Of a stretch of DNA of 64,000 nucleotides, positions 5,946-48,474 are shown one piece after another. The stretch spans positions 65,409-129,408 of the forward strand of contig CAYJRN010000002.1 in NCBI GenBank assembly GCA_964372915.1, written 5' to 3'. Positions within the stretch are counted from its first letter, which is position 1. Each line of letters opens with the position of its first letter. The stretch is from an uncultured Planctomycetales bacterium (GTDB lineage Bacteria > Omnitrophota > Gorgyraeia > Zapsychrales > JAHFFX01). The notes under the pieces are model-generated. The model was given only the letters and a program-made list of their open reading frames with translations, was not told where the DNA came from and did not search any database. The position numbers and the translations under genes were made by a program.

Positions 5946-6003
5946 CAATATCTCGACGATTGTTATCTTGGGAAAACATTTTTTAGAGGAACAATCGTCA
6001 ATA
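5946..6003. repeat. Palindromic repeat family B, copy a (atatctcgacgattgttatcttgg ... agaggaacaatcgtcaata)
   Basis: Hairpin with about 14-bp arms, cgacgattgtt.tc and gaggaacaatcgtc. It is nearly identical to the copies at 34216-34264, 38170-38227 and 47522-47579. Confidence 0.75.
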
Positions 6004-6019
6004 GCTCAAGAAAGAGACG

Positions 6020-6376
6020 TCAAGATTTTGAGGATGCATGAAACGTTTCGGTGATCTGGATATTGAATAACTTCTCGACTTTTTCGGTAGGTTCCATACG
6101 AATGGCATCCCAGGTGAGCTTAGTGCAGACGCGAGCGCAAATCTGGCAGCCGATGCATTCGTTGTAGCGGATTTGAACCGGAGGGATGGGAATGTTAAAT
6201 TTTTCTTTAGGGGCAACTTCAATGCAATCCACCGGGCAAAAAGGTACGCAGGCTTGACAGCCCGTGCAGTTGTCGACATCAACGACCGCGAGCAGCTTAG
6301 GCTTTTTTTTCTTGGAAGTGATTTTATCAGGAAGTTCTGGGATAGTTTTGTAGAAACTACTCGATGGAGTCGCCAT
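6020..6376 (-). CDS. Ferredoxin, 2 x [4Fe-4S] (two CxxCxxCxxxCP motifs)
   Basis: CTGCQACVPFCP and CIGCQICARVC motifs. Confidence 0.75.
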   Translation of the reverse strand: MATPSSSFYKTIPELPDKITSKKKKPKLLAVVDVDNCTGCQACVPFCPVDCIEVAPKEKFNIPIPPVQIRYNECIGCQICARVCTKLTWDAIRMEPTEKVEKLFNIQITETFHASSKS

Positions 6377-6411
6377 AAAATTCTTTCAAAAACATCCTTT
6401 AAAAGAATTGA

Positions 6412-6696
6412 TTAAGTCTTGGGAGGCGCTAAAGGTGTTTTCTTTTCCGTAATGACCGGTAAGTTGGGAGATTTGGTTTTGTTGAGCTCAATGTAACTTT
6501 TCCATTTCTCCGGGACATCACTTTCAGCGTAAATGGCCTGGACGGGACATTCGGGAATGCAGGCACCACAATCAATGCAGACATCCGGGTCGATCACGAC
6601 CATTTCTGCATCTTCATGAAAGCAATCAACGGGGCAAACCGTAACGCAATCCGTATAACGGCATTTTATGCAAGGTTCGGCAACGATGTGAGCCAT
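6412..6696 (-). CDS. fdxA: 7Fe ferredoxin (FdxA type, [3Fe-4S][4Fe-4S])
   Basis: N-terminus [25 protein letters not shown]...[12 protein letters not shown] matches Azotobacter-type ferredoxin I. Confidence 0.8.
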
Positions 6697-6851
6697 TTCA
6701 AATTCCTCCGGGTGATGTTTTATGTAGTAATCTCAAAAACCGGTTTCACTATATCAAAGTCAAAAATATTTGTCAACATCCCATTTTGGTATTTTGTGAG
6801 AGAAAAAGTAATTTTCAACCCCTTTGGACTTGACATGAATCAAATCAGATA

Positions 6852-6880
6852 TTGACGGTAGAACACGGATTCTTTATAAT
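6852..6880 (+). promoter_or_regulatory. Sigma70-like promoter for acnA (TTGACG - 17 nt - TATAAT)
   Basis: Near-consensus -35 and -10 hexamers with a 17-nt spacer, about 58 nt upstream of the acnA ATG. Confidence 0.5.
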
Positions 6881-6937
6881 GAAAATCTCGTCCGGATCGA
6901 CATTTTTCCATCAGTTGGATTTCGTAAGAGCGCTAGA

Positions 6938-9646
6938 ATGAATTCAATTTTCAGTAATGAAGAAACTTGTAAGACCCTCAAAACGCAACAGGGGAGTTTT
7001 ACTTATTTTAAGATTTCAGAACTCAACAGGCTGGGAATTAAAGTTAATGAAAGGCTCCCCTTTTCGATCAAGGTCCTCCTGGAAAGCGCCTTGCGCAATT
7101 ACGACAATGATCAGGTGACCCTGACGGACATAGAAAGACTGGCTTCCTGGTCGCCTAAAACAACCCAACCTGCCGAAATCGCCTTCAAGCCTGGGCGTGT
7201 CATCCTGCAGGATTTTACCGGAGTTCCCTGCGTCGTCGACTTGGCTGCCATGCGTTCGGCGATGAAGAAAATGGGCGGGGATTATCACAAGATTAATCCG
7301 TTGGTGCCTTGTGATCTGGTCATTGACCATTCCGTGCAGGTGGACGCGTTCGGCTCCAGAGGAGCCGCGAAAATCAATGTGACCAAGGAATTCGAACGCA
7401 ACATCGAGCGTTATGAATTTCTCAAGTGGGGTCAACAGGCCTTCCGGAATTTCCGCGTCGTACCGCCGGCCACGGGCATTGTTCATCAAGTGAATTTGGA
7501 ATATTTGGCTAAAGGCGTTCTGCGAAAAAAATCCGCTAAAGAGATCGTCGTCTATCCGGACAGCTTGGTTGGCACCGACAGTCATACCACCATGATTAAT
7601 GGTCTGGGCATTGTGGGCTGGGGGGTCGGAGGCATTGAGGCCGAAGCCGTCATGCTGGGCGAACCCATTTATCTGTTGGTGCCGGAAGTCATCGGATTCC
7701 AATTGACCGGAAAATTGCCAGAGGGGATTACCGCGACCGACTTGGTTTTGACCGTGACCCAAATTTTGCGTAAAAAGGGCGTCGTCGATAAATTTGTTGA
7801 ATTCTTTGGCAGCGGGCTTGAACATTTGAGTTTACCGGATCGCGCCACGATTTCCAATATGTCACCGGAATACGGGGCCACCATGGGATTCTTCCCGGTG
7901 GATGAAGAAACCCTTAATTATTACAAACTCACGGGCCGAACTTCTCAAGAAGTCAATTTGATCGAGCGTTATATGAAGGCTCAAGGGATGTTTTATGACC
8001 CCAACAACGAGCCGGAATTTACGGATGTTCTGACGCTGGATCTTTCGGCCGTCACCCCCAGCCTCGCGGGCCCCAAGCGACCGCAGGATCGGGTCGCGAT
8101 GAGCGACATGAAATCCACCTTTGAAAAAGCTTTGGAAGCCCCTCTTGAAGAGCGCGGGTTTGGGTTAGAGAGAGCGGCCTTAAGGAATTCCGCGACCATC
8201 ACGAATGGTTCACCCGAAAAGATTTCCCACGGGTCCGTCGTGATCGCTGCCATTACCAGTTGCACGAATACTTCCAATCCATCGGTTTTAATCGGCGCCG
8301 GGTTGTTGGCCAGAAACGCCGTCCAAAAAGGTTTAAGGGTCAAAAGTTTTGTGAAAACAAGTTTCGCCCCGGGCTCCAAGGTTGTTGAAGAATATTTGAA
8401 AAAGGCCGGACTGCTTCCCTTTCTTGAGAAGCTGGGATTTTATATTGTCGGGTATGGCTGCACAACCTGCATCGGTAACAGCGGGCCGTTGCCGGAAAAA
8501 GTCGCGCAAGCCATCGAGAGTTCGAATTTGGTGGTGGCAAGCGTTCTGAGCGGCAACCGGAATTTCGAAGGACGCATCAATCCTTTGACGCGAGCCAGTT
8601 ATTTGGCCAGTCCACCCTTGGTTGTTGCTTATGCCTTGGCCGGCTCCGTGCATATTGATTTGACAAAGGAACCACTCGGCAAAGGCAAAAACGGCCAGGA
8701 TGTCTATTTGAAAGATATTTGGCCTTCGCAGAAAGAAATCAGCCGCCTCATCCTCAAAGTGGTCAAGGCCTCGCAATTCCGGGATCGCTACAAAGATGTT
8801 CTCAAAGGCAATAGCAACTGGAATAAAATCAAAACCGTGAAGTCCGATTTGTATGATTGGAAACCGCAAAGCACCTATATCCAGGAGCCGCCGTATTTTG
8901 AACAGATCAATGATCGGCCGGGGATTATCAAAGACTTAAAAGGAGCCAAAGTCCTGATGATGGTCACAGATTCCATCACGACCGATCACATCTCTCCGGC
9001 CGGCGACATCGCTTGGAATTCTCCCGCCGGACTTTACCTCAAAAGTCTGGGGGTAGATCCCGCGGATTTTAATAGTTATGGGGCTCGTCGGGGAAATGAC
9101 CGGGTGATGACCCGTGGGACGTTTGCCAATATTCGTTTGCGCAATTTTCTAGCGCCGGGCACGGAAGGCCCCTGGACAATGTATTTCCCGGAAAACAAAA
9201 TAATGACGGTGTATGATGCCGCGCAATTGTATAAAAAGAACCAGACGCCTTTGATTGTTCTGGCCGGGAAAGAATATGGGGCAGGTTCCAGCCGCGACTG
9301 GGCCGCGAAAGGGACGGCCCTCTTGGGCGTGAAGGCCGTTTTAGCCCAGAGTTACGAGCGCATTCATCGTAGCAATTTGGTGGGGATGGGCGTTTTGCCC
9401 CTCGTTTACACGTCGGGGCAAAACGCCCAGAGTTTAGGTTTGAAAGGCGACGAGACTTTTGATTTTCTGGGTCTCAGCTCTTCGATGAAACCCCGACAGG
9501 AGATCAAGGTTGTTGCAACGACCAATGACGGTTCCAAGAAAGAATTTAGCGCCACAATGCGCTTGGATACTCCCGTGGAGATCGATTATTACCGTAACGG
9601 CGGCATTCTGCCGACGGTCTTGCGTAAACTTGCCAAAAGCAAGTAG
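6938..9646 (+). CDS. acnA: Aconitate hydratase A
   Basis: 902 aa with aconitase family motifs ([17 protein letters not shown]) and Fe-S Cys ligands. Confidence 0.9.
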
Positions 9647-9678
9647 ACCTTCCTAAAAGCTGGAACCCGTGATATATT

Positions 9679-9812
9679 GAGCCATCGGGAAATTTTTAGA
9701 CTACCTTACCCGATGGCTCATCCTGAGAAGCGGAGCGACGAAGGATCCTTCGCCCTTCGGGCTTTAGGATGACCAGTCGGGTGGGGTAGTCTGAAAACGC
9801 CCGACTGGTCAT
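9679..9812. repeat. Complex nested palindromic element (family D) in the acnA-leuC intergenic region
   Basis: Two 29-nt segments, gactaccttacccgatggctcatcctgag and its imperfect inverse ctttaggatgaccagtcgggtggggtagtc, flank the palindromes gaaggatccttc and gcccttcgggc. Outer hairpins are gccatcggg/cccgatggc and atgaccagtcggg/cccgactggtcat. Confidence 0.6.
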
Positions 9813-9851
9813 ATTTGTTGAGATTGCTTAAAATAAGTCAGGAAGAAGTCT

Positions 9852-11267: not shown

Positions 11268-11322
11268 AGCGGCTTTCTCTACGGGGTAAACGACGGGTGT
11301 TTAAAAATAAGGAATAGAAAAC

Positions 11323-11937: not shown

Positions 11938-11947
11938 AGGGATCTTT

Positions 11948-13639: not shown

Positions 13640-13711
13640 TTTGGTGGTTCGTTGTTCGGTGTTCGTCATTCGTTGACGAACAACGAGCCACGAACAACAA
13701 ACAACGGAAAT

Positions 13712-14779: not shown

Positions 14780-14805
14780 TCCAGCTTCCCTCGATCAATT
14801 CTTCT

Positions 14806-15687: not shown

Positions 15688-15698
15688 AGTTTTTCCTA

Positions 15699-16358: not shown

Positions 16359-16482
16359 GAGTTTATAAATTTGAATCCATTATATTCCCTTGAGGAAAGA
16401 CCCACAAGGGGAATTTGTAACCCTGTCAAGCCAAATGAGAAATGTCCTAGTATGGTGCATCTAACGCTTCTTGACATTTGGG

Positions 16483-16561
16483 TGTCATTGCGAGCGAAGC
16501 GAAGCAATCTCTTAAAGGATTGCTTCGTCGTCGCTGTAAAACGCTCCTCCTCGCGATGACA
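16483..16561. repeat. Palindromic repeat family A, copy 2 (short variant)
   Basis: tgtcattgcgagcgaagcgaagcaatctcttaaaggattgcttcgtcgtcgc...ctcgcgatgaca. ORF 16326..16559 is merely its translation. Confidence 0.7.
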
Positions 16562-16667
16562 CAATAACAAGAATTCAAATATAAATAGATTTATGACGCG
16601 CCACGCTAGGTAGTAAGATGTCCATAGCGAACGTAGGCGGTCGTTATGGAGATCGGGAAGGACATAA

Positions 16668-17027
16668 TCATGATGAGCAGCGAAGAGTTAAGGCGGATAG
16701 GAATCATCAAGAAGGTGTTGGCCCAAGAGATCAATCAGCAAGAAGCGAGTGAAGTGATAGGGGTCAGTGATCGGTAAGTGAGGAGAATCGTAGCGCGGGT
16801 AAGAAAAGAAGGAGAACGAGGGGTGATACACCGGTTGCGTGGGCAAGAAGGAAACATATCGGGAATGGCTGTTCCGAGATGTTGAAGAATTAACGCAGTT
16901 TGGGCGGGCCTGCCGGCAGTTAGGAGTCGAGTTGATTTATGCGGATACCCCGCAGGCCAAAGGGCGGGTTGAACGATTGTTTGAGGCGTTTCAAGATCGG
17001 CTGGTCAAAGAGATGCGTGCAGCTTAA
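16668..17027 (+). pseudogene. Transposase remnant (ISNCY/IS481 family): N-terminal HTH with internal stop fused to a C-terminal fragment, with the DDE core deleted
   Basis: The N-terminus MMSSEELRRIGIIKKVLAQEINQQEASEVIGVSDR is followed by a TAA stop and then VRRIVARVRKEGERGVIHRLRGQEGN, which resembles the MSxxELKRxxIxxxVLEGRLTQxEAAxxLGLSxRQVRRLLKRYREEG N-termini of this family. The C-terminal fragment LGVELIYADTPQAKGRVERLFEAFQDRLVKEMR resembles the conserved integrase-like tail. Confidence 0.55.
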
Positions 17028-17077
17028 CCCAAAATTAGGACATTTCTAATTTGGCTTGACAGCCTTTGTTTTACCGC

Positions 17078-17106
17078 TTGACATTTCATCCCGAAATACT
17101 TATATT
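17078..17106 (+). promoter_or_regulatory. Sigma70-like promoter (TTGACA - 17 nt - TATATT) upstream of the guaB-like gene
   Basis: Consensus -35 with a 17-nt spacer, located just outside the IS remnant's right inverted repeat. Confidence 0.45.
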
Positions 17107-17193
17107 ATAGGTCATTATTTACTGCTCAATTTTGCCGATGATCAACGATTCAACGATTTTCGTTTTATTTTCTCCAGGGGGTTTTAAGAGTCT

Positions 17194-18387: not shown

Positions 18388-20199
18388 ATGGCAAAACGAA
18401 AATTGAAGAAAAGAAAAAAGTTGGGCGGCAGGGCTTCCCGAAAGATTTTCAGAAGGGCTTCCCGAAAGACTTCCAGAAGGGCTTCCAGGAAGATTCCCAG
18501 AAAGATTTCCAAAAAGATTTTTAGAAGGATTCCCAGAAAGATTTATAGAACAGTTTCCAAGAAGAGGAGAACCGTCCGAAAGCTCCGAAAAACTTCGAGC
18601 CCGCGGCTGTGGCTCAGGTCGACGGTGACCTCGAACGCCACAACCCTCAAAGGTCCGCGCTATAAAGAGGTGGTCCTGGTTCTTGATTTCGGTTCGCAGT
18701 ACACCCAGCTCATTGCCCGTCGGGTGCGCGAAAGCAAAGTCTTCAGTAAGATCGTCCCCTACAACATCACCCCGGAACAAGTCACGGAAATAGGCGCCAA
18801 GGGCCTTATCTTTTCCGGTGGCCCGATGAGCGTCTACGATAAAGGCGCTCCCCTGCCCAACAAAGGGCTTTTCAAGCTTGGAATTCCCATTCTAGGGATT
18901 TGCTACGGTATGCAGGCCTTGACCGAGATCTATGGCGGCAAAGTGGATAAAAGCAAAGAACGGGAATTCGGCAGCGCCGAATTGTTCGTTGACAGCAACC
19001 GGGATTTGTTTGTGAATCTGCCGACCAACCTCACCTGTTGGATGAGTCACGGGGATTCCATCAAAAAACTTCCCGAAGGATTTGTTGCGATCGCCCACAC
19101 GCTCAACGCCCCCATTGCGGCGATTGCCAACCGCGCCAAGAAAATTTACGGCGTCCAATTCCATCCCGAGGTTGCTCACACGCAGCGGGGAGGCCAGATC
19201 CTAGTCAACTTTCTCTTTCAGATTTGTGGATGTCTGCCCCGCTGGACCATGGATAAATTCATCCATTCCACCATCAAGAATATGAAAGAAGTGGTGGCCC
19301 GTAAAAAAGTGGTGCTGGGGTTAAGCGGGGGAGTGGATTCTTCGGTCACGGCCATGCTCATCCAGCAGTCGCTGGGCAAACAACTGCACTGCATTTTCGT
19401 CGACAACGGTTTGCTGCGCAAAAATGAAGTGGCCTCGGTGGAGAGAACCTTCAAGGGCAACTTCAAAATGAACCTGACGGTCGTGGATGCCCAAAAAAGA
19501 TTTTTGACGCGGCTTAAAGGTGTCGAGGACCCGGAAGAGAAACGCAAAATCATCGGCGATGAGTTCATCAAAGTGTTCCAGGACACGGCCAAGAAAATCA
19601 AAAATGTTGATTTTCTGGCCCAGGGGACCTTGTATCCGGACGTCATCGAGTCTTTTTCTCCCATCGGCGGGCCTTCGGCCGTCATCAAGAGTCATCACAA
19701 CGTCGGGGGCTTGCCTAAAAACATGAAATTTAAGCTTGTCGAACCCTTGCGCGAACTTTTCAAAGATGAGGTGCGTCAGATCGGCAAAAGTTTAGGCCTC
19801 CCCGAAGCGGTCCTCAAACGTCAGCCGTTCCCGGGGCCGGGCTTGGCCATTCGCGTGATCGGCGAAGTCACCGAAGAACGCCTCAACATCTTAAGGGAGG
19901 CCGATGAGATCGTCCTCGATGAAATCAAAAAGGCCAACCTGTACCATGAGGTCTGGCAATCGTTCGCGGTGCTTTTGCCCATCAAGACCGTGGGGGTCAT
20001 GGGCGATCAGAGGACTTACGAGAACGTCATTGCCATCCGCTGTGTCAGCAGCGTCGATGGGATGACCGCCGACTGGGTCAAGTTGCCCTATGAGCTTTTA
20101 GGAAAAATGGCCAACCGCATCATCAACCAGGTCCGCGGCGTCAACCGCGTCGTCTATGATGTTAGCTCTAAACCCCCTGCGACTATAGAATGGGAATAA
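18388..20199 (+). CDS. guaA: GMP synthase (glutamine-hydrolysing) with an about 94-aa Lys/Arg-rich repeat-containing N-terminal extension
   Basis: Canonical GuaA begins at [21 protein letters not shown] (aa 95). Downstream are the GATase domain, ATP-PPase SGGVDSS motif and C-terminal dimerisation domain. There is no in-frame stop between ATG 18388 and the catalytic domain. Confidence 0.85.
18430..18549 (+). repeat. Five tandem 24-nt repeats (agaagggcttcccgaaagattttc-like) encoding (R/K)ASRKI.R octapeptides in frame with guaA
   Basis: Direct reading of the sequence: ggcttcccgaaagattttcagaa / gggcttcccgaaagacttccagaa / gggcttccaggaagattcccagaa / agatttccaaaaagatttttagaa / ggattcccagaaagatttatagaa. 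Confidence 0.8.
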
Positions 20200-20320
20200 T
20201 GTCTGGGGTTTAGACAATCCCCACTCGTGTCATGTCTGGGGACAGCTCGAAGCCTCCCGCAACGATAGAATGGGAATAAGCCCGTAGGGGCACGGCATGC
20301 CGTGTCCCTACAGTTTCACC

Positions 20321-25720: not shown

Positions 25721-27103
25721 ATGCTGCGCACACATACCTGCGGCGAATTAAACACGACCCATAAAGATCAAGAAGTCACTTTATGCGGCTGGGTGCATCG
25801 CCGCCGAGATCATGGAAAATTGATCTTCATCGACTTAAGAGACCGCTACGGGCTCACGCAAGTGGTGTTTGTCCCTTCCCTGGGCCCCGAGGCGCATAAA
25901 GTGGCGCAAGGGTTGGGCCCGGAATTCGTCGTGCGCTTGACCGGCAAGATCGGCATCCGCCCCAAGAATAACATCAACCCGAACCTGCCTACGGGAGAAG
26001 TGGAGCTCGCCGCCACCAAGCTTGAGATCCTCAACCCCGCCAAGGTCCCGGTCTTTGAGATCGATGACAACGTTCAGGTCTCGGAAGAGATCACGCTCGA
26101 ATACCGCTATCTTGATATCCGTCGCTCGAAGATCTTGAACGCGCTTAAGGTCCGTCACAAACTTTGCTCGACGATTCGAAGTTTTTTTAACCGTGAAGGG
26201 TTCATGGAAATTGAGACACCGGTGCTGACCAAGTCTACCCCCGAAGGCGCGCGCGACTTTTTGGTACCCTCGCGCCTTAAGACAGGCGAATTTTTTGCCC
26301 TGCCGCAATCCCCACAACTTTTCAAACAGATTTTGATGGTCTCGGGTATTGACAAGTATTTTCAAATCGTCAAATGTTTCCGCGATGAAGACCTGCGTGC
26401 CGATCGCCAGCCGGAATTCACCCAAATCGATATGGAGATGTCCTTCATCGAGGAAGAAGACATTTACGCTTTGACCGAGCGGATGTACAAGGAAATCTTC
26501 AAGGAGGTCAAAGGAATAGATCTTCCCGCGCCGTTTCCCAGGATGACCCACGCCGAAGCGATGGCGAAGTACAAGAGCGATAAACCCGATATCCGTCAAG
26601 CCGGCCAGGAGTACGCCTTCGTTTGGATTGTCGACTTCCCGCTTTTTAAATACAACCAAGAAGAAAAGCGCTGGGACAGCGAACATCATCCGTTTACCTC
26701 CGTCAAGCCCGATGACAGGGAGGCTTTTGAAAAAGGGCAGTTGGAAAAGGTGCGGGCGCGCTCCTATGATCTGGTGTTAAACGGCAATGAGATTGGCAGC
26801 GGTTCCATCCGTATCCATGACAGCGCGATGCAGCAGAAAATTTTTGATATTTTGGGATTGGGAAAAGAAGAAGCGCGCAAGCGCTTTGGGTTTCTTTTGA
26901 AGGCCTTCCAGTATGGAGCGCCCCCGCATGGCGGGGTGGCCTATGGCATTGACCGTTTGACGGCCATTCTCTGCGGACTCGATTCGATTCGCGACACGAT
27001 CGCTTTTCCAAAAACCCAGAGCGGAAGTTGTCTGTTAACCGATGCTCCATCGGAAGTGGATGCCAAACAGTTAAAAGAGTTAGGATTATCTGTACGAAAG
27101 TGA
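25721..27103 (+). CDS. aspS: Aspartate--tRNA ligase, bacterial-type core but lacking the GAD insertion domain (460 aa)
   Basis: N-terminus MLRTHTCGELN...VTLCGWVHRRRDHGKLIFIDLRDRYG. Motif 2 is QSPQLFKQILMVSGIDKYFQIVKCFRDEDLRADRQPEFTQIDMEMSF. The sequence then passes directly from KSDKPDIRQ to WIVDFPLF...HHPFTS, the segments that flank the roughly 130-aa GAD domain in E. coli AspRS. Confidence 0.8.
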   Translation: MLRTHTCGELNTTHKDQEVTLCGWVHRRRDHGKLIFIDLRDRYGLTQVVFVPSLGPEAHKVAQGLGPEFVVRLTGKIGIRPKNNINPNLPTGEVELAATKLEILNPAKVPVFEIDDNVQVSEEITLEYRYLDIRRSKILNALKVRHKLCSTIRSFFNREGFMEIETPVLTKSTPEGARDFLVPSRLKTGEFFALPQSPQLFKQILMVSGIDKYFQIVKCFRDEDLRADRQPEFTQIDMEMSFIEEEDIYALTERMYKEIFKEVKGIDLPAPFPRMTHAEAMAKYKSDKPDIRQAGQEYAFVWIVDFPLFKYNQEEKRWDSEHHPFTSVKPDDREAFEKGQLEKVRARSYDLVLNGNEIGSGSIRIHDSAMQQKIFDILGLGKEEARKRFGFLLKAFQYGAPPHGGVAYGIDRLTAILCGLDSIRDTIAFPKTQSGSCLLTDAPSEVDAKQLKELGLSVRK

Positions 27104-34071: not shown

Positions 34072-34084
34072 GGAAGAATTTCGT

Positions 34085-34264
34085 CTTACTGGCTTTTTCT
34101 TTTCCAAATACACTTGTGGTAACCAGTATCTCGCCCTCACTTTCCTTTGAAAAATTTCTAGAGGAAGTGAGGGCTGCCCCAGTTTCCTCTGAATATGTTT
34201 TAAGGAAAACAGGGGCGACGATTGTTCTCTTGGTAAAACTCTCTTTAGAGGAATAATCGTCAAG
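34085..34264. repeat. Palindromic repeat family B, composite copy b: shared 5' module cttactggctttttctttt...ccagtatctcg, an inserted nested hairpin, and the core hairpin
   Basis: 34085-34133 matches 38137-38172 (cttactggctttttcttt ... tggta[a/g]ccagtatctcg). The core cgacgattgttctcttgg ... agaggaataatcgtcaag lies at 34216-34264. 34134-34215 is an extra nested palindrome (ccctcacttcc/ggaagtgaggg, ccccagtttcc/ggaaaacagggg). Confidence 0.7.
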
Positions 34265-34314
34265 AATTGAAATCTATTGTACAGGTTACAGGGTCTGCAA
34301 ATCAAGATAAATGA

Positions 34315-36198
<1,884 letters not shown>

Positions 36199-36281: not shown

Positions 36282-38111
36282 TTAGACAGCGGCAGGTATC
36301 AGCGAATCGCTAAAAATTTCCTTACGTTCATCAGTAAGCTCTTCTAATTTATTTTTAAAATCCATGAGCTCTTCAAACATTCTTTTCCGATATTCCTCGT
36401 TTTCCTCGATCAGCTTCGGAATGAGCGTGCGGTAATATTCAATCCCGTCAAAAATGTTTTTCTTAAACTCGCGGAAATATTCCTTTTGTTTTTCCGTTGG
36501 TTCAACGTGCTTCTGAATATCTCTGGCTAAATACTCGATGTACATCTTGAGCTCTTTGATGAACATATTGGGCCGATAAGTGGAGTTGAGGAGATTGACG
36601 CGGCCGTAAATATGACCGACCATTTCCGCCAGCGTGCAGATCTTTGAAAAGTAGGCGAGATTGGGGCCCGGGCAAACGGCGCTAAAGCGCTGAAACGTAT
36701 TTTTAATATTGTTCTTAATCATCGCCGGTTCGCCCAGGTCGTTACAGATGCAGGCCTTCATAATGATAGAATTGTAAAGCTTTCTAAACTGCTGGGGCTC
36801 GAGATTCATTTTGGCAATCTGGTCCAGTTTGAGCTTTTGATACTGACGGGAGGCCGTACAAATAGGTTCCGGGGTAAATTCGGTGTTGGAAACAAGATGG
36901 CCCTTGGGGCAGGCGCTTCCCGGGCGTCCGGTTTGGGCGCGGCGTTCTTTTTCTGCGTCGCTGCTGGAATCGCGGAGATTATTGAAAGGAACCCCTAAAG
37001 GAGAGACGTTGCTTAAATAAAGATCGTCTTCCCCGGCGGCGGCCAATTTTTTGAGCGTTACATCATCGACATTGGTCACTTCCGGACACAACAGAAACGG
37101 CGTGGCCCAACCGGTTCCATCCAATTGATAGTAGTTGAGCAAAAATTTATCTTCCTTAACCGTTCCGATGCCGCCCTGGGCGGTGATTTTCACATATGGG
37201 GGATTCAAGAAAGGAATTTTGTTCTTGAGCTTCAATGCCTCGTTGCACATCGCGTGCAGTGTCTCGATCAATTCCTTTTTCTTTTGTTTAAATTCTTCAA
37301 GAATAGGGCCCATCAAATAGCCGTCGGTGGCAAAGGCGTGCCCGCCGCAATTCAACCCCGATTCGACGCGGTATTCCGAAATCCACAGACCTTTTTTGGC
37401 AAAGAACTTTCCCTGGGTAATGGAGGAGCGAAAATCACTGACCTTGAGTATGATTTTTTTCTTGAGAAAACCCGCCGCGTCGGCATAAAAATCTTTAAAG
37501 TTTTCGACATAACTGTAAAGCCGGCGATTGATCCCGGCGGAGAAAACGATAGAAGAGTTGAGTGTGCTGTTGGCAAACCCGCGCAACGCCGCCAAGGCAT
37601 CGGAATATTCCGCGGGAAGTTCTTTGCCGTCCTTAGAATAGTTGGCCCGGTCTAACTTAGTCATGATGTTGACGTTGATGTCACCGGGACGAATCATCTC
37701 TCGCAATTCAGTTTGCAGTTGGGATTTTTTTGCGGGATCTTCGGTGGCGAGCATTGTTCGGTAGGAGAGTTTTAAAGGAGAATCATCGGCCAAAAGTTCG
37801 AAATATTTGGTGATTTCCGTCCCCGGCTCGAAAGCAGAAGTCTTTAAGGTTTCGAATTGATTTTTTACGATTTTATTCACTAAATTCAAGTAGGCGGTGA
37901 TGCGGCGGGCCCGGTAGTCCTCCTCATCCTTGGTGATGGCCTGATAAGGTTCTCCGGTAAGCACACAATAAAACTGGCGCATCTCCTCAACCAAGGTGTC
38001 GTCCACAAGGGAAATCACAGAAGAGATTCCGTATTTGGCGACCTTGATGGGAGTATCGATGGAGAAGGCAGTCCCCATAACGGGGATGTGAACTGAATGG
38101 ATGTTTTTCAT
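36282..38111 (-). CDS. Hypothetical FMN-type TIM-barrel protein (NMO/IMPDH superfamily-like) with a Cys-rich C-terminal extension
   Basis: Start MKNIHSVHIPVMGTAFSIDTPIKVAKYGISSV. Motifs NCGGHAF and ITAQGGIGT resemble the GGHRG and AAGGI.DG motifs of nitronate monooxygenase/FabK enzymes. About 230 extra C-terminal residues carry several Cys. Function unknown. Confidence 0.45.
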   Translation of the reverse strand: MKNIHSVHIPVMGTAFSIDTPIKVAKYGISSVISLVDDTLVEEMRQFYCVLTGEPYQAITKDEEDYRARRITAYLNLVNKIVKNQFETLKTSAFEPGTEITKYFELLADDSPLKLSYRTMLATEDPAKKSQLQTELREMIRPGDINVNIMTKLDRANYSKDGKELPAEYSDALAALRGFANSTLNSSIVFSAGINRRLYSYVENFKDFYADAAGFLKKKIILKVSDFRSSITQGKFFAKKGLWISEYRVESGLNCGGHAFATDGYLMGPILEEFKQKKKELIETLHAMCNEALKLKNKIPFLNPPYVKITAQGGIGTVKEDKFLLNYYQLDGTGWATPFLLCPEVTNVDDVTLKKLAAAGEDDLYLSNVSPLGVPFNNLRDSSSDAEKERRAQTGRPGSACPKGHLVSNTEFTPEPICTASRQYQKLKLDQIAKMNLEPQQFRKLYNSIIMKACICNDLGEPAMIKNNIKNTFQRFSAVCPGPNLAYFSKICTLAEMVGHIYGRVNLLNSTYRPNMFIKELKMYIEYLARDIQKHVEPTEKQKEYFREFKKNIFDGIEYYRTLIPKLIEENEEYRKRMFEELMDFKNKLEELTDERKEIFSDSLIPAAV

Positions 38112-38136
38112 TAATGTGTTGGGCCGTTTAAAAAGC

Positions 38137-38227
38137 CTTACTGGCTTTTTCTTTTTGTGGTAGCCAGTATCTCGACGGTTGTTTTCTTGGATGGATCTGC
38201 TATCTTTTGAGGAACAACCGTCAATAA
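38137..38227. repeat. Palindromic repeat family B, copy c, in the 5' leader of the minus-strand TIM-barrel gene
   Basis: cttactggctttttctttttgtggtagccagtatctcgacggttgttttcttgg ... gaggaacaaccgtcaata. The arms carry compensatory changes (cgacgGttgtt / aacaaCcgtc) relative to the other copies. Confidence 0.7.
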
Positions 38228-38455
38228 ATCGACCAACGGCTTGAATACAATCATATACCAATCTACCTAAAAGGCAAGGAAAATAATATCTATATTACTC
38301 GAACTTGGTAGGCTTGAAAAGACAGAAATATGAAAAATAAAACGCCTATTATTTGCTTTATGCAGGTTTTTGTACTAGAATATTCTAAAATTTGACATTT
38401 TTGAAGCTTAACCCCACGCTCCTCCTGTGCGTCGGAGCTTTGGGGTAAATTCCGG

Positions 38456-38498
38456 CTTACAACTTATGTCGCACCCTTTGGGCGCTCCATAAGTTGTG
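38456..38498. repeat. Hairpin family C, copy 1 (cttacaacttatg - 19 nt - cataagttgtg) in the bioB leader
   Basis: 10-bp perfect stem. The same stem sequence occurs at 62382-62419. Confidence 0.6.
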
Positions 38499-38516
38499 CC
38501 GTCATTTAAGGGATCC

Positions 38517-39626
38517 ATGAACCGTTCGTATTATTGTCAACTCGCAGAAAAATCGATTGCCACAGACACCCTTTCTTTCTCAGAGTCTTATGAAATCTTG
38601 ACTTCCCAAGATATCGAACTTTTGCCGCTTTTGGATGCCGCCTTTCAAGTGCGAAAAAAGTTTACAGGCAAGGAAGTTTCCGTCCATATCATTAACAATG
38701 CGCAAAACGGCTTTTGCCCGGAAGACTGTCATTACTGCGCCCAGGCTAAGACCTCAACAGCCGATATTGAAGAATATCCCTTAAAACCGGATCAGGAAAT
38801 ACTGGCGGAAGCCAAAAACGCTTATGAAAAAGGAGCTTTCCGCTATTGCATGGTGTTCGCTGGACGTGGGCCGTCGGCGCGGCGCGTGGAGCACCTGGCG
38901 AGATTGATCCGTGAAATTAAAGTTCGATACCCCATACAGATTTGTGTTTCGGCTGGGATCATGGATGAAGCCGCAACCCGCACGCTCAAAGAAGCCGGTC
39001 TCGACCGTTTGAATCACAACCTCAACACCTCCGAGCGTCATTATCCCAACATTTGCACGACCCACACGTATGAGGAGAGAATCAATACCCTCTTGGCGGC
39101 AAAAAAGGTGGGATTGGAAATGTGCTCAGGCATTATCGTCGGCCTGGGGGAAAAAGTCGATGATATTATTGAAGTGGGGATGAATTTAAGAAGATTAACG
39201 GCTCGTTCCATTCCGGTTAATTTTTTGATTCCCATTGAAGGCAATCAACTCAAAAAAATTACCAGCTTAACGCCGGAATATTGTTTACGAATTTTGTGTT
39301 TGTACCGTTTTTTAAATCCCGACTCGGAATTGCGCGCGGCCGCCGGACGGGAAGGCCACTTAAGGAGCCTGGAGGTGATGGCGCTGTATCCGGCGAATTC
39401 GCTCTTTTTGGACGGGTATTTGAACACCAAAGGTTCCAGCCGTGCCAAGACTTTACAAATGATCAAGGATGCCGGGTTTACCATCAAATCGGAATTTACC
39501 GTGGATGAAGTTTTAGAAAATGAAACTTTGCCCAAGACGGCTTACAGGGTTGACGACGGCCAAACATTGATGAAGGGACTTAAAGAATTACGACCGCAGT
39601 TGGAAGCTCAACCCACCAAAAAATAA
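38517..39626 (+). CDS. bioB: Biotin synthase (radical SAM)
   Basis: CPEDCHYCAQ radical-SAM motif. Auxiliary-cluster ligand contexts (YCMVFAGRG, ICVSAGIM, CSGIIVGLGE, AAGRE). RBS TAAGGGA precedes ATG 38517. Confidence 0.75.
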   Translation: MNRSYYCQLAEKSIATDTLSFSESYEILTSQDIELLPLLDAAFQVRKKFTGKEVSVHIINNAQNGFCPEDCHYCAQAKTSTADIEEYPLKPDQEILAEAKNAYEKGAFRYCMVFAGRGPSARRVEHLARLIREIKVRYPIQICVSAGIMDEAATRTLKEAGLDRLNHNLNTSERHYPNICTTHTYEERINTLLAAKKVGLEMCSGIIVGLGEKVDDIIEVGMNLRRLTARSIPVNFLIPIEGNQLKKITSLTPEYCLRILCLYRFLNPDSELRAAAGREGHLRSLEVMALYPANSLFLDGYLNTKGSSRAKTLQMIKDAGFTIKSEFTVDEVLENETLPKTAYRVDDGQTLMKGLKELRPQLEAQPTKK

Positions 39627-39645
39627 AGTCAGAAGGAAGCTTAAG

Positions 39646-43311: not shown

Positions 43312-43341
43312 TCTTTTTGATTATTTTATTGTTACATATCC

Positions 43342-44292
43342 ATGCCTGAACCAATTGTTATAAAAATTCCTCAGTATTTTGTTCATCAGAATTTCGATTC
43401 GTTTTTACAACAGGTCAAAGTTCTTGAACCGGTTTTTAAAAATACACCGCAGGATGTTATTTTTGATTTTTCGGAAAATGAATACACATCTGTTTTAGGG
43501 GTTTTATTGCTCGCACAGGCTGCGGACCATTTTTCCAATTTACAATGTAAATCTTTAGTTCGTTCGATGGATGCTGAAAGAAGTAATCGACGGTGGTTTC
43601 TTCAAGTTATGGATTTTATAAAAGGAGATGACAGCAAGGAATTACAAAACTATTTTGATACCTTTCGAGTTCCAATACAACGCTGTTATCAGGAAAAAGA
43701 AGTCTACGAAGCTTTGAACAAAAGGTTAATCCCTTTAATCCGGAAAGAATTTAATCCACCGGAGCCAATCTTAAAAGCCATTAACTGGGTGTTGTGGGAA
43801 GCTATTGGGAATTCCATCGTGCATGGATATTCGATTGCAAATTATGAAGGAATGTATCCTTATCCAGTTTATTTCTGTGCCTTTTCCTATAAACAATCCA
43901 TAGATATTGCAATTTTGGATGTGGGACAAGGGATTCATAAATCATTGACGTCTATAGAAGAATATAAAAATTTTTCAAACGCTGATGCATTAAAATTGGC
44001 TATTCAAAATGGAGTTTCTGGTAGCAAAGAAGGAAGTCCCGGGTTCGGATTGTATGGCTCCGCTGAGATTGCAAAACAATCAAATGGGGAACTAATTATA
44101 ATATCCGGTGCTAGTAAATTGGTGTTGCAAAACAGTGTGCTAACTTTGGAAAGTTCTTCTTATTATCAAGGGACTATGTTACAATTAACCATTCCTGCAG
44201 GGATTAATCTTGATTTGGCCCAAATATTTGGCCAAGGACATTTGATGACTACTGAAGATACTGATACATTAATGGGTAATTTTGATGAATAA
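43342..44292 (+). CDS. GHKL-type ATPase (histidine-kinase-like ATP-binding fold) with an N-terminal STAS-like region
   Basis: N-box-like EAIGNSIVHG, D-box ILDVGQGI and G-box GSPGFGLYG. The N-terminal roughly 150 aa resembles anti-sigma antagonist/STAS folds. Sits in an AT-rich segment. Confidence 0.5.
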   Translation: MPEPIVIKIPQYFVHQNFDSFLQQVKVLEPVFKNTPQDVIFDFSENEYTSVLGVLLLAQAADHFSNLQCKSLVRSMDAERSNRRWFLQVMDFIKGDDSKELQNYFDTFRVPIQRCYQEKEVYEALNKRLIPLIRKEFNPPEPILKAINWVLWEAIGNSIVHGYSIANYEGMYPYPVYFCAFSYKQSIDIAILDVGQGIHKSLTSIEEYKNFSNADALKLAIQNGVSGSKEGSPGFGLYGSAEIAKQSNGELIIISGASKLVLQNSVLTLESSSYYQGTMLQLTIPAGINLDLAQIFGQGHLMTTEDTDTLMGNFDE

Positions 44293-44608
44293 TAGAGAAA
44301 TTGAAACTATAAAGCTTTCAGAATTCGGTTCTTCATTGGGAACGAGAGAACTGGGGCGAAAAATTAGGGAAGATGTATTGTCTCGAGTGCGCGAACAAAA
44401 ACGTGTTCTGGTTAATTTTAAAGGCGTTCATATTATTTCGAGCGCTTTTGCTGATGAGATATTTGGTAAGCTTTTTATAGATTTGAAGGATTCTAAGTTT
44501 AAGGAGAGCATTAAGATTAATGGGTTTGATAACGAAGAAGACAAGAATTTAATTCTTTTGATTATCCAAAAAGCAATTGACTTCAGAAAAAGCAATCAAG
44601 ATGGTTAG
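44282..44608 (+). CDS. STAS-like small protein (DUF4325-like) partnered with the GHKL ATPase
   Basis: 108 aa. Overlaps the 3' end of the upstream ATPase, which suggests translational coupling. STAS-like pattern (KRVLVNFKGVHIISSAFADEIFGKL). Confidence 0.4.
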   Translation: MMNNREIETIKLSEFGSSLGTRELGRKIREDVLSRVREQKRVLVNFKGVHIISSAFADEIFGKLFIDLKDSKFKESIKINGFDNEEDKNLILLIIQKAIDFRKSNQDG

Positions 44609-44742
44609 TGGTTATACAACGGATCAAAATTGGCAATCATTTTGTATGGCAATAGTGGATCACCTTTTCAGGCTTTAGGAGAAGCTTTTTATTTTCAAAA
44701 TAAATTTTGTGATAGTTCATTTGGTCGAGAAAGGAGCCATCC

Positions 44743-45147
44743 ATGATAAAAAGGGTTTTAATTTTTGTTTGTTTTTTATTTTTTCTTGGTTGTTCCACAG
44801 CTAGTTCTCATCGTCAGCAAGTAAAAGATGATAAGGGGGACAGGCTGACTGTTGGCAAAGTACAAAGAGAAATACGCATAGGGATGCCATCTTCTCAGGT
44901 TATTGAAGCCTTGGGGTCTCCTAATGTCGTTTCAACAGATGAAAACAGATTAGAGGTTTGGATTTATGACAAGATTGCCACAGATGTGTCTTATTCCAAT
45001 AGCGAAGGAGGCGTTTGGCTTATACTTGGAAGTGTTGGTGGTTCTTCGGGAACAACTTCAACTTCCCAGAGAACATTAACGATAGTGGTTAAATTTGATG
45101 CGGATAAAAAAGTCAGAGATTTTGCATATCATTCCTCCAGCTTCTAA
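44743..45147 (+). CDS. Lipoprotein, BamE/SmpA-OmlA-like
   Basis: Lipobox FLGC. Motif LTVGKVQREIRIGMPSSQVIEALGSPNVVSTDENRLEVWIY resembles the BamE fold signature. Confidence 0.45.
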   Translation: MIKRVLIFVCFLFFLGCSTASSHRQQVKDDKGDRLTVGKVQREIRIGMPSSQVIEALGSPNVVSTDENRLEVWIYDKIATDVSYSNSEGGVWLILGSVGGSSGTTSTSQRTLTIVVKFDADKKVRDFAYHSSSF

Positions 45148-45160
45148 AAGTGAAAGTAGA

Positions 45161-45721
45161 ATGACAAAACAACATTGCTATTTTAGATGGTTACCCTTGC
45201 TGACGTTATGTGTTGGAATTGTAGGCTGTGAAACTACTCCAAATGGGTTTCTTAAGTCCTCAGAGGCGTATTTGCAAAAACGTCAACTCGAGATGAGACA
45301 ATACGATACCAAAGATGAGACGAAAATTCTTTCCTCGGTTGCCGGAGTTCTTCAAGATTTAGGTTTTACATTAGATGAAAGCGAGACCGAATTAGGTTTA
45401 GTGGCAGCTTCAAAAAAGGCTGATGCAAAAGATGGGGGTCAAATGGCAGGGGCTTTTTTTCTTGATGTCTTAGCTGCCCTTGGAGGGTCAGGTGGAAACG
45501 CCATGGCAACTGTAGATAAGTATCAGCATGTTAAGGTTTGTGTTGTTACAAAGTCTAGCCAAGATACCAATAAGACGGTTGTTCGAGTGACTTTTCAAAG
45601 AATTGTTTGGAATATGAGTAATCAAATAAGTCGGGTAGAAACAATAAATGATCCGCAAATATACCAAAAATTTTATGATAACCTATCGAAAGCCATCTTC
45701 TTAGAAGCTCAGCAAATATGA
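45161..45721 (+). CDS. Lipoprotein of unknown function (paralog 1)
   Basis: Lipobox IVGC (start chosen at MTKQH). Shares a C-terminal motif with the downstream gene: LQDLGFTLD...YQKFYDNLSKAIFLEAQQI versus MQDLDFVID...YQDFFIALEKALFLTAQQV. Confidence 0.45.
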   Translation: MTKQHCYFRWLPLLTLCVGIVGCETTPNGFLKSSEAYLQKRQLEMRQYDTKDETKILSSVAGVLQDLGFTLDESETELGLVAASKKADAKDGGQMAGAFFLDVLAALGGSGGNAMATVDKYQHVKVCVVTKSSQDTNKTVVRVTFQRIVWNMSNQISRVETINDPQIYQKFYDNLSKAIFLEAQQI

Positions 45722-46146
45722 AAAACTCAGTCCGTTACATGCTTTCAATAAGTATGTTTTGTGTGATTCTCGTTGGGTGTGCGACGACTACGGGAAAAGC
45801 GTTTGAAACCAATGAAAGCCAAGTTAAGTTGAGAGCAATGCAAACCAGGACATTTGATACTAACGATAAGAAAAAGATGATGCAGACTGTGATCAGCACA
45901 ATGCAGGATTTAGATTTTGTTATCGATAAGGCTGATTTTCTCCTTGGCTCAGTGAGTGGGACAAAATTTACAGGAAATGCTATTGTTCAGATGACCGTCA
46001 CAGTGAGGACCCGGGGAGAAAAGCAACTTTTGGTTAGGGCTAATGCACAATACGGCATTCAGTCAATTGAAGATGCGGCTACGTATCAGGATTTTTTTAT
46101 AGCGTTAGAAAAAGCTTTATTTTTGACAGCACAACAGGTGGATTAA
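45718..46146 (+). CDS. Lipoprotein of unknown function (paralog 2)
   Basis: Lipobox LVGC. Tandem paralog of the preceding gene. Confidence 0.45.
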   Translation: MKNSVRYMLSISMFCVILVGCATTTGKAFETNESQVKLRAMQTRTFDTNDKKKMMQTVISTMQDLDFVIDKADFLLGSVSGTKFTGNAIVQMTVTVRTRGEKQLLVRANAQYGIQSIEDAATYQDFFIALEKALFLTAQQVD

Positions 46147-46264
46147 AAAAATTCCTAGATTCAACCCCTGCCCCAGTAACTAGCTTGAAAAGCATTCATT
46201 GACTCCTTCCTTCACAAGCCTTTTGAAATATGTTAAGATGTCGCGTATTTTTTATACCTCTTTC

Positions 46265-46999
46265 ATGGAGAAAAATATGGAGCATCTTCAGGAAAATTTG
46301 CAAATTTCCAAGGCGGATTCCTGGCGCCTATTCGACGCCATTTCGCCTCGTTATGATTTTTTGAACCGACTGCTGTCCTGGGGACAGGATCTGCGTTGGC
46401 GACGAGAAATCGGACGATATCTCCCACAAAATGAAGAATTGACGGTCCTTGATTTGGCCACCGGAACCGCGGATGTTTTGATCACTTTGGTTGAACAGCA
46501 CAACATTGCTCAAGCCTACGGCCTGGACAGGTCGCACAAAATGCTTGAAATAGGACGCAAAAAAATAGCAGCGAAAGGTTTAACCGGGACCATTCGTTTG
46601 CAAGAAGGGGACGCGCACGCGATTTCCTATGCCGGCAACATGTTTTCCGCGGTCACGATGGCTTTCGGCATCCGCAATATGGCGAATCCCCAAAAAGTTT
46701 TAAAAGAATGTTTCAGGGTTTTAAAGATGGGCGGCAGGGCGCTCGTTTTAGAATTCTCCCTGCCGCCCAATCCTGTCGTCCGTTTTTTTCATCTGCTCTA
46801 TTTGCGGTACGTTGTTCCGTTCATCGGATACGTTTTTTCCGGTAACACCCAAGCCTATAAATATTTGAATGAAACGATCGAAACCTTTCCCTCTGGAGAT
46901 GATTTTCTCAAGATGATGCAAGACGCAGGCTTTAAAAATCTTCAAGTCCATCCGCTTCTTTTTGGCGCGGCTTCCATTTATCAGGGGGATAAGAGTTGA
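46265..46999 (+). CDS. menG: Demethylmenaquinone/ubiquinone methyltransferase (UbiE/MenG)
   Basis: UbiE family N-terminus (WRLFDAISPRYDFLNRLLSWGQDLRWRR), SAM motif LDLATGTADV and C-terminal YRYL-like motif (YKYLNETIETFP). Start uncertain (46238, 46265 or 46277). Confidence 0.75.
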   Translation: MEKNMEHLQENLQISKADSWRLFDAISPRYDFLNRLLSWGQDLRWRREIGRYLPQNEELTVLDLATGTADVLITLVEQHNIAQAYGLDRSHKMLEIGRKKIAAKGLTGTIRLQEGDAHAISYAGNMFSAVTMAFGIRNMANPQKVLKECFRVLKMGGRALVLEFSLPPNPVVRFFHLLYLRYVVPFIGYVFSGNTQAYKYLNETIETFPSGDDFLKMMQDAGFKNLQVHPLLFGAASIYQGDKS

Positions 47000-48474
47000 T
47001 GGAAATTCTCGTTAAATCCGAAAGCTGCTCTTTGAGTGAAGCCGCTTTAAAACTTAAAAAGCTGCTAGCTTCTCTTTCGACGAACAGCTCTTTTTCTAAA
47101 GACCGCCCAATCACGCGTCTTGAGGTAAAAGTCAACAAAGAAAATATTCTCGCCTGGCTAAAACAACAAAGCCAAGGACCGAAAATTTATTGGTCCAATC
47201 GCGAAGGAACAACGGAAACAGGAGGGGTGGGAGCAGCCGATTGTGTTGTGTGCGCAAACGCCAAAGAGATTTCCTTAGGGCTTCACAAAATTAATCAAAC
47301 GCTAAAAGATGCGGCGCAATCTCTCAAATATTTTGGAGGGATGTGTTTCGATGCGAACAATTTGAACAATGAATGGAGCGAGTTTGGCCCATTCTGGTTT
47401 GTCCTGCCGCGATTTGAACTTGTTCATCAAAAAAAAGAAAGTTTTTTGGCCTGCAACCTCATTCGCAACAACATTCAGCCCTTTATTGGTCTTTTCCCAT
47501 CCAATGACACAAAGGAAGACCAATATCTCGACGATTGTTCTCTTGGAAGAACCCTCTTTAGAGGAACAATCGTCAATAATGTCGATGCCATCATGAAAGA
47601 ACTTGATCTTCTCGATTTTGAAATTTCTTCAAGTTCTTTCGATGTGGCGCACTATCAAACCCGCATCGATCATCCCAACAAAGAAGAATGGCTGACAAAA
47701 AGCGTTCAATCGCTCAAGGCCATTAAAGAAGGCGTCCTTAAGAAAGTCGTCCTGGCTAAAAAAACACAATTCCATTTTAATGATCCTATCGATCCCTGGG
47801 ACCTTGTGAGCCAGCTCAAAAACGACAAGTCCGACTGCTATCATTATTGTTTCAGCCCCAATCCTTCCGTCGCATTTTTGGGCGCTTCCCCCGAAAGATT
47901 ATACGAGCGAAAAAATCGAGAAATAAAAACCGAGGCGATCGCTGGCACTCGCCCAAGAGGTACATCGACCGTTGAAGACGAACGTTTTAAAAACGAACTT
48001 TTGACTTCCCCCAAAGAGCTCAGGGAACATCAGCTGGTTGTGGATTTTATCGAGGAGCGATTGTCTTCATTGTGCTCGGAGCTTAAATGGAACAAACGCG
48101 CATCTTTATTGCGCTTAAAAGAAGGGCAGCATCTTTACTCGGCCTGCGAAGGACTTTTGAAAGCGAATGTGAGCGACGAAGAATTGATTTTTAAACTCCA
48201 TCCCACGCCAGCGGTGAGTGGTGTTCCTCAAGAGAAGGCGCTTAAAGCCATTTGGGAAACTGAACCCTTCAGCCGCGGCTGGTACGCCGGGCCTATCGGA
48301 TGGATCGCAAACGAGGAAGCCGAATTCGCCGTGGCCATTCGTTGCGGACTGCTTCAGGGATCAAAACTTTCTCTCTTTTCCGGAGCCGGGCTTGTGGAAG
48401 GTTCAACACCCGAAAGTGAATGGGAAGAAATCGAGCATAAGTTGGGAGTTTTTTTAAAAATCTTAAAGACATGA
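46999..48474 (+). CDS. menF: Isochorismate synthase
   Basis: Chorismate-binding motifs PTPAVSGVPQEKA and GWYAGPIGWI...AIRC. Contains an in-frame copy of the family B palindrome at 47522-47579. Confidence 0.8.
   Translation: MEILVKSESCSLSEAALKLKKLLASLSTNSSFSKDRPITRLEVKVNKENILAWLKQQSQGPKIYWSNREGTTETGGVGAADCVVCANAKEISLGLHKINQTLKDAAQSLKYFGGMCFDANNLNNEWSEFGPFWFVLPRFELVHQKKESFLACNLIRNNIQPFIGLFPSNDTKEDQYLDDCSLGRTLFRGTIVNNVDAIMKELDLLDFEISSSSFDVAHYQTRIDHPNKEEWLTKSVQSLKAIKEGVLKKVVLAKKTQFHFNDPIDPWDLVSQLKNDKSDCYHYCFSPNPSVAFLGASPERLYERKNREIKTEAIAGTRPRGTSTVEDERFKNELLTSPKELREHQLVVDFIEERLSSLCSELKWNKRASLLRLKEGQHLYSACEGLLKANVSDEELIFKLHPTPAVSGVPQEKALKAIWETEPFSRGWYAGPIGWIANEEAEFAVAIRCGLLQGSKLSLFSGAGLVEGSTPESEWEEIEHKLGVFLKILKT
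47522..47579. repeat. Palindromic repeat family B, copy d, located in frame inside menF
   Basis: caatatctcgacgattgttctcttggaagaaccctctttagaggaacaatcgtcaataat encodes QYLDDCSLGRTLFRGTIVNN. It is nearly identical to the intergenic copy a at 5946-6003. Confidence 0.75.

Follow-up and report, generated by a model that had tools for sequence, protein, structure and literature searches.

Does a palindromic sequence that recurs at unrelated places in a bacterial genome represent a mobile repeat, or a regulatory structure shared by the genes that it adjoins? The question is raised by a 64,000-nt stretch of contig CAYJRN010000002.1 (the window), from an uncultured bacterium of the Omnitrophota, in which a hairpin with a 58-nt core is present as five units. 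They occupy four loci and all belong to the + strand, whereas chance would produce none. The original prediction had hesitated between a miniature inverted-repeat transposable element (MITE) donating leader sequence and a shared cis-regulatory RNA structure. We consider it fairly probable that the units are copies of a lineage-specific, non-coding and non-autonomous palindromic repeat of ~90 nt, inserted at unrelated loci of an Omnitrophota genome, because near-identical copies stand at unrelated loci and because relatives have empty orthologous sites, both for the MenF segment and for the leader of a gene encoding a conserved 609-aa protein. The repeat family is real, lineage-restricted and of a known kind, and the original idea of a mobile palindrome was broadly correct.

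The four copies predicted at the outset are all present, as judged by pattern search, shuffled sequences and a covariance model. Their cores lie at 5946-6003 (copy a), 34208-34265 (b2), 38168-38227 (c) and 47521-47578 (d), and a search with a single arm allowing up to three mismatches gave 3-4 matches, compared with 0.00-0.03 in shuffles. A fifth unit, b1, was found at 34127-34174. It has the scaffold TATCTCG..YCTTKG..AGAGGAA in common with the other copies, while six of its nine lower-stem pairs are swapped, ACGATTGTT/AACAATCGT being replaced by CCCTCACTT/AAGTGAGGG. The covariance model, made from copies a, c and d and applied to the entire window with filters off, returned exactly these five units on the + strand; its remaining matches were the reverse strand of the same palindrome or had E>0.1. 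The copies have no open reading frame (ORF) of their own and no coding capacity. Their size (89-97 nt), their non-coding nature and their presence at multiple unrelated loci (four here, in addition to two copies in an ENA contig described below) fit what is expected of a MITE. GC skew is positive all along the window; the + strand is thus the leading-strand sequence and all five units are carried by the G-rich strand.

The 58-nt core announced at first stands, but it is only part of the element, which measures ~89-97 nt and comprises two hairpins. Hairpin 1, whose stem of 8-10 bp closes a loop of 15-26 nt, is joined by a TCTC linker to hairpin 2 (14 bp, made of 10-11 bp, a bulged G and a further 3 bp), and an AATA tail follows. 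Alignment of the flanks showed that a, b1, c and d, the four full copies, each possess hairpin 1. It corresponds to the extra 5′ module that had been noticed, correctly, at b and c, but that is not confined to them. Locus b is a tandem pair, b1 then b2 in the same direction, with a mosaic make-up: the hairpin 2 stem is replaced in b1 and hairpin 1 is replaced in b2. Both hairpins fold in each full copy. For RNA of the minus strand, folding is significant in four of the five units (z from -2.8 to -3.9) but not for the b2 unit (34205-34272) taken alone (z -1.2). For single-stranded DNA of the + strand, the full elements a, c and d reach z -4.1 to -4.9.

The extremities behave differently from one another. 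Left ends vary (TTATTGAC, TTACTGGC, TTATTGGT), differing at three of eight positions between copies, and the right end GTCAATA is constant. Terminal complementarity of 8 nt exists in copy a only, so that terminal inverted repeats are not common to all copies. TA borders a, c and d at both ends, but may belong to the element itself. All left flanks end in CTT (CCTT in three of the four). It is TCTC or CTT, and not GTAG, that stands before the stems; GGTAG occurs only within the hairpin 1 loop. Reading the sequences by eye, we saw no -35/-10 pair conserved among copies inside the element. The sole promoter-like match within it (34230-34257, in b2) is in keeping with the number of matches expected by chance.

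Both hairpins are maintained by changes on either side of their stems. In the model-fitted alignment, pairing holds for 94% of stem cells and two-sided changes are observed at 10 of 22 pairs, values of pairing and of two-sided change that none of 500 shuffles reached; sliding the partner by 1-3 columns lowers pairing to 30-53%. The compensatory A>G / T>C pair reported for copy c is real. Changes at the left end are matched by others in the internal 3′ arm of hairpin 1 and not in the right end, which implies that the termini are not kept alike; for the same reason, we rejected pairing between the two ends of the element. Covariation is nearly all Watson-Crick and the rare strand-specific wobbles are divided 3 to 2, with T.G at columns 62/90 (two copies) and G.T in b2 favouring the + strand, and C.A in b1 and a (G.U on the minus strand) favouring the other. 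Since pairing is equally good on both strands, covariation is no evidence for a functional RNA: it bears out the maintained pairing that had been noticed, without indicating that RNA is the form in which the pairing matters.

A caveat on this covariation comes from the window itself, where perfect hairpins are in excess: 23 have stems of 10 bp or more, compared with 2.1 in shuffles, and eight have stems of 12 bp or more, compared with 0.05. Four of the long ones, perfect hairpins of 12-15 bp with loops of 13-22 nt, occupy conserved stretches of the aconitase, ubiE, menF and menE coding sequences without any insertion. In the nearest relative, identical or similar residues of ubiE and menE are encoded with no hairpin being formed; here, the arms have thus become complementary through synonymous or near-synonymous codons. 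Template switching during replication can create and repair stems in a single step (PMC8794818). It is a candidate cause of these coding-sequence hairpins and could likewise yield the paired changes of the element.

The copy within menF (d) occupies a site that is empty in homologs. As predicted, it is in frame and brings no stop codon; four of its six frames are stop-free. In a 15-sequence alignment, MenF displays ~31 extra residues (93 nt), PFIGLFPSNDTKEDQYLDDCSLGRTLFRGTIV, absent from all 14 homologs and from the MenF of the syntenic nearest relative (thiC, 611-aa gene, BATS gene, OFOR genes, ubiE, menF, menD), which counts 458 aa as compared with 491 here. The segment therefore looks like an insertion, as had been suspected, but of about 31 aa and not ~20, and it spans both hairpins, beyond the 58-nt core. 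Deletion of the 93 nt between the two TA restores ...IQPF|NVDAIM... and the length found in homologs. All 77 invariant columns of the MenF family are kept. In the AlphaFold2 model (mean predicted local distance difference test, pLDDT, 85.6), only residues 158-192, which are those of the insert, fall below 50. We infer from this model that the insert would form a disordered surface loop of ~31 aa and that the fold would be retained. This is the single in-frame gene copy, one of five units.

Copy c lies in the leader of the 609-aa gene. Homologs of the protein number in the hundreds (66-76% identity, 598-626 aa, nearly all covering 95-100%) and every named one is from Candidatus Omnitrophota. 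In four relatives, the gene is preceded by a promoter TTGCNN-17-TATAGT, then by a leader of 24-48 nt without element. In the window a similar promoter is followed by a leader of 138 nt, of which the ~90 nt in excess are copy c. With the promoter kept and the leader excess equal to the element, copy c appears inserted between promoter and start codon, as proposed for a MITE donating leader sequence. It should then be transcribed, but not as a conserved leader structure. From sequence comparison, the copies in menF and in this leader look like insertions, the absence at orthologous sites (14 MenF homologs, four leaders) being a comparison between species.

The start codons given for the helicase (34071) and the 609-aa gene (38111) match independent gene calls and homolog lengths. 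Loci b and c do stand just upstream of minus-strand starts (14 and 26 nt, respectively), but so does copy a, which was listed simply as intergenic and is found in the spacer after the ferredoxin gene, 11 nt from the ATG at 5900. Minus-strand genes are ~7 of roughly 60 in the window (counted from the ORF list and family scans), so that placement of three of three intergenic loci beside them has very roughly p = 0.001-0.004. A strand-specific target is one explanation of this placement, since the CCTT of the left flanks is the complement of the Shine-Dalgarno AAGG; it remains in competition with a role in leaders, to which we return below. By insertion, two mRNA leaders and one intra-operon spacer would gain two stable hairpins between promoter and ribosome-binding site. 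The effects were probably neutral, or limited to a mild change in mRNA stability or translation.

Outside the window, the exact two-arm pattern had no match in genome contigs or in metagenome contigs. A relaxed, stem-independent scaffold pattern gave 8 and 9 matches respectively, about the number expected by chance, with stem complementarity of 2-6 out of 10 (8 out of 10 in one unrelated Ilumatobacteraceae contig); none has the hairpin of the family, and viral contigs gave 0 matches. No match was found in plasmids by blastn, and no copy in 68 kb from the four relatives. Six-frame peptide queries against 5.8 billion proteins retrieved MenF itself and no other host protein. HMMER with the 35-aa peptide of the menF frame detected one further protein, P0241 (82 aa, E = 9e-9), encoded by a 1158-nt ENA metagenome contig of ERZ27296333. 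Its ORF spans two tandem copies, one b2-type (WGDDCSLVRTYVRGTIVNN) followed by one full d-type (SFIGLF..EDQYLDDCSPVGLYISGTIVN), in which stem codons are conserved and loops have diverged. There, the element runs in the direction of the downstream gene, opposite to the arrangement at loci a-c. Logan contigs of the same organism (ERR4904391-3, ERR3478686-7) are identical to the window and add 13 kb of flanks, for a readable total of ~77 kb; these flanks hold no further copy. Logan contig L023, which ends in b1, was dismissed as evidence of a repeat, Logan contigs breaking at unrelated palindromes too.

Coordinates of the repeat units, of the genes that adjoin or host them and of the coding-sequence hairpins
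Feature	Position	Strand	Sequence or stem	Context
Copy a, full two-part element	5912..6003	+		between ferredoxin stop 6020 and ATG 5900
Copy a, hairpin 1	5913-5919 / 5944-5950		TATTGAC / GTCAATA	
Copy a, remainder	5951-5954, 5955-5999, 6000-6003		TCTC, hairpin 2, AATA	
Copy b1	34086..34174	+		left end 14 nt from helicase ATG (34071, minus)
Copy b1, hairpin 1	34087-34094 / 34121-34128		TACTGGCT / AACCAGTA	followed by TCTC
Copy b1, variant hairpin 2′	34133-34174		GCCCTCACTT / AAGTGAGGGC	apical motifs of family retained
Copy b2	34176..34265	+		tandem with b1; tail AAGA
Copy b2, different 5′ hairpin (GCCCC...GGGGC)	34176-34187 / 34204-34216		GCCCCAGTTTCC / GGAAAACAGGGGC	
Copy b2, canonical hairpin 2	34217-34261		one G.T pair	adjoins 5′ hairpin
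Copy c	38138..38226	+		within 609-aa gene leader, 26 nt from ATG 38111
Copy c, hairpin 1	38139-38146 / 38162-38169		TACTGGCT / AGCCAGTA	
Copy c, remainder	38170-38173, 38174-38222, 38223-38226		TCTC, hairpin 2 (compensatory G-C), AATA	
Copy d	47483..47578	+		in frame in menF, ~residues 161-193
Copy d, hairpin 1	47484-47493 / 47516-47525		TATTGGTCTT / AAGACCAATA	
Copy d, remainder	47526-47529, 47530-47574, 47575-47578		TCTC, hairpin 2, AATA	
menF, isochorismate synthase, 491 aa	46999..48474	+		host of copy d
Conserved 609-aa protein, no Pfam family	36282..38111	-		leader with copy c
Sigma-70-like promoter	38250..38277	-	TTGCCT-16-TATGAT	upstream of copy c
Hel308-like helicase, 739 aa	31852..34071	-		b1 and b2 upstream
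159-aa membrane protein	5421..5900	-		directly downstream of copy a on minus strand
Coding-sequence hairpin	9387-9429			aconitase
Coding-sequence hairpin	46728-46769			ubiE
Coding-sequence hairpin	47595-47640			menF
Coding-sequence hairpin	54752-54795			menE

How could such a non-autonomous repeat have moved? The copies would have spread through transposition catalysed in trans. With low confidence, we lean towards a strand-specific single-stranded DNA mechanism that would depend on hairpin structure, as in the REP/RAYT or IS200/IS605 systems, over one based on a DDE transposase and terminal inverted repeats. This leaning comes from the common orientation on the G-rich strand, from the left end that varies yet pairs internally next to a constant GTCAATA right end, and from the CTT at the end of all left flanks. 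Other mobile remnants in the window, an insertion sequence (IS) remnant and mini-elements, also count in favour of mobility.

Several points weigh against the insertion of a mobile repeat. Only four loci were found in ~77 kb, and no transposase or autonomous parent was detected among the ORFs scanned in the window and its 13 kb flanks. The Logan contigs of the organism are all identical to the window and showed no presence/absence polymorphism. Neither terminal inverted repeats nor a target duplication can be taken as established, and TA is maybe part of the element. The common orientation is weak evidence, with p ~0.125 for four loci. Finally, the placement next to minus-strand genes could reflect selection for a role in leaders, and not a target preference.

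Of the competing explanations, a classical DDE-type MITE (Correia or IS630/Tc1-derived) survives best, although we hold it to be unlikely. The short terminal repeats TTATTGAC...GTCAATAA would be the transposase substrate ends, TA would be the duplicated target and the hairpins would be incidental. The perfect 8-nt terminal inverted repeats of copy a, the TA at either end of a, c and d, and the net insert of 93 nt in menF, equal to the element plus one TA, would all be accounted for, and among the bacterial MITEs known this type is the most frequent (PMC10969869). It does not explain why changes at three of eight left-end positions are compensated internally and not at the constant right end, nor the single orientation of all copies. 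No matching IS was found either, the only IS remnant of the window (16423-17062) having unrelated terminal repeats.

A more specific version of the single-stranded scenario, which we regard as distinctly unlikely in this detailed form, is HUH/Y1-like mobilisation with insertion 3′ of (C)CTT on the lagging-strand template, maybe supplemented by lineage-specific template switching. (C)CTT being the complement of AAGG, copies would land by the ribosome-binding sites of genes transcribed against replication, which would explain the three intergenic copies located 11-26 nt upstream of minus-strand starts. Template switching may add to this, as it would explain the 12-15 bp coding hairpins and keep the stems of the element paired.

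Alternatively, the units could be a structural repeat retained by the host, REP/BIME-like, whose mosaic hairpins would be kept in transcribed intergenic spaces for their effect on mRNA stability or as binding sites of nucleoid or topoisomerase proteins; the copy in menF would then be a rare stray. We find this improbable. The modular mosaic of b1 and b2, the tandem clusters at locus b and in P0241, the position of all copies in probably transcribed regions and the stems that remain paired are features of this kind. However, no GTAG stands beside the stems, the copies form no inverted doublets, no RAYT gene was seen among the ORFs scanned in ~77 kb, and two copies are in 5′ leaders and one in an intra-operon spacer, not at operon 3′ ends.

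Least probable of all is the cis-regulatory RNA leader (a riboswitch, protein-binding or translational control element on the minus strand) that would control the membrane-protein, helicase and 609-aa genes and have an accidental copy in menF: three intergenic copies upstream of minus-strand ATGs in the same orientation, promoter-like sites just upstream of b and c, and a strong structure with covariation speak for it, but the element is missing from the orthologous leader in four relatives where the promoter is conserved, the three downstream genes have no function in common, copy d lies antisense within a coding region, the ENA contig shows the reverse arrangement relative to its downstream gene, the covariation is Watson-Crick on both strands with wobbles split 3 to 2, and no Rfam match was obtained at gathering threshold or at E<=10.

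As b and c are also upstream of the + strand genes thiC and radical-SAM/BATS, a thiamine pyrophosphate (TPP) riboswitch was considered as well. It was rejected: the regions upstream of thiC (34072-34380) and BATS (38227-38520) match neither TPP nor any other Rfam family, even at E<=10, syntenic relatives are without the element, and the idea accounts for neither copy a nor copy d. There is also a 10-bp hairpin at 38459-38497, which overlaps the start annotated for the BATS gene.

Further structures were observed in the window. Downstream of aconitase, two related hairpins of 12-13 bp (9678-9720 and 9769-9812) have loops, TAGACTACC and GGTAGTCTG, that are mutual reverse complements; the pair, with a GAGCGACGAAG-type motif between, makes a REPIN-like inverted doublet. 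A second, unrelated family of small repeats consists of mini-elements (693-852, 16484-16561) with TGTCATTGCGAGCGA... inverted repeats and internal hairpins, one copy of which is inside the IS remnant. The latter is a 640-bp element (16423-17062) bounded by 27-nt terminal inverted repeats, 96% complementary, with ends unrelated to the hairpin family. By eye, some of its fragments resemble a helix-turn-helix and a transposase ORF of integrase type (rve-like), and it looks like a decayed IS.

The last 54 nt of guaA (...PPATIEWE*, 20146-20199) are repeated 80 nt downstream (20226-20279) with 74% identity, a 10-bp hairpin being located between the gene end and its repeat; this may be the scar of an integration at the guaA 3′ end. 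Between a Pyr_redox gene and ubiE, a region of ~2.9 kb (43312-46198) has an average binned G+C of 0.41 versus ~0.48 and carries five ORFs, one with DUF4325 and the others without confident Pfam family. Since the two bordering genes are only ~100 nt apart in the syntenic relative, it is probably an acquired insert. Finally, the aspartyl-tRNA synthetase ORF (25721-27103, 460 aa) aligns in two stretches with the bacterial model of 590 positions, suggesting an enzyme without the inserted (GAD) domain.

With the palindromic repeat described here, the Omnitrophota, a phylum known from metagenomes only, gain a repeat family; in the literature searched, we found no description of such elements in this group. 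It offers a clean case, in a bacterium other than Rickettsia, of a palindromic repeat that persists in frame within a core biosynthetic enzyme, and an example of a repeat that separates a conserved promoter from the start codon. If true genome-wide, its placement by ribosome-binding sites would represent an unusual target preference. The covariance model can be used to flag assembly breakpoints and mis-called ORFs in related metagenome genomes.

Compared with known systems, the element borrows from several. Like Correia elements (CREE/NEMIS) and DDE MITEs, it is non-coding, lands in leaders and has TA at both ends; these are a class of ~100-150 bp, often directly upstream of genes and transcribed into hairpin RNA able to alter expression (PMC10969869). 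Correia elements, however, are marked by terminal inverted repeats of 26 bp, a TA duplication, an IHF site and promoters of their own, whereas here terminal complementarity does not exceed 7-8 nt, in one copy only, no conserved promoter was seen inside the element and the left end co-varies with an internal partner. The Correia half of the predicted likeness is thus not established, the varying left end being paired internally. With REP/REPIN/BIME (RAYT) and PATEs (IS200/IS605), the element shares a hairpin-built architecture with little or no terminal inverted repeat, conservation of structure over stem sequence, and mosaic or tandem arrangements, and its one-strand orientation and conserved CTT flank resemble strand-specific single-stranded DNA transposition. 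Here again differences are clear: REPs carry GTAG 5′ of an imperfect palindrome of 20-40 nt and form inverted doublets, neither of which is seen in this element; left and right hairpins are alike in PATEs and unlike each other here; and no Y1 transposase was found among the ORFs in ~77 kb. The other half of the predicted likeness, to the Rickettsia palindromic elements (RPEs), holds for the in-frame insertion. RPEs are ~100-150 bp long, belong to Rickettsia and are very frequently inserted in ORFs (44 in R. conorii), as opposed to one of five units here, in an Omnitrophota host. Like the element of the window, they are small palindromic repeats without known transposase, found in frame in housekeeping genes where the resulting peptide is tolerated (PMC10969869), as the low-confidence loop of ~31 aa added to MenF appears to be.

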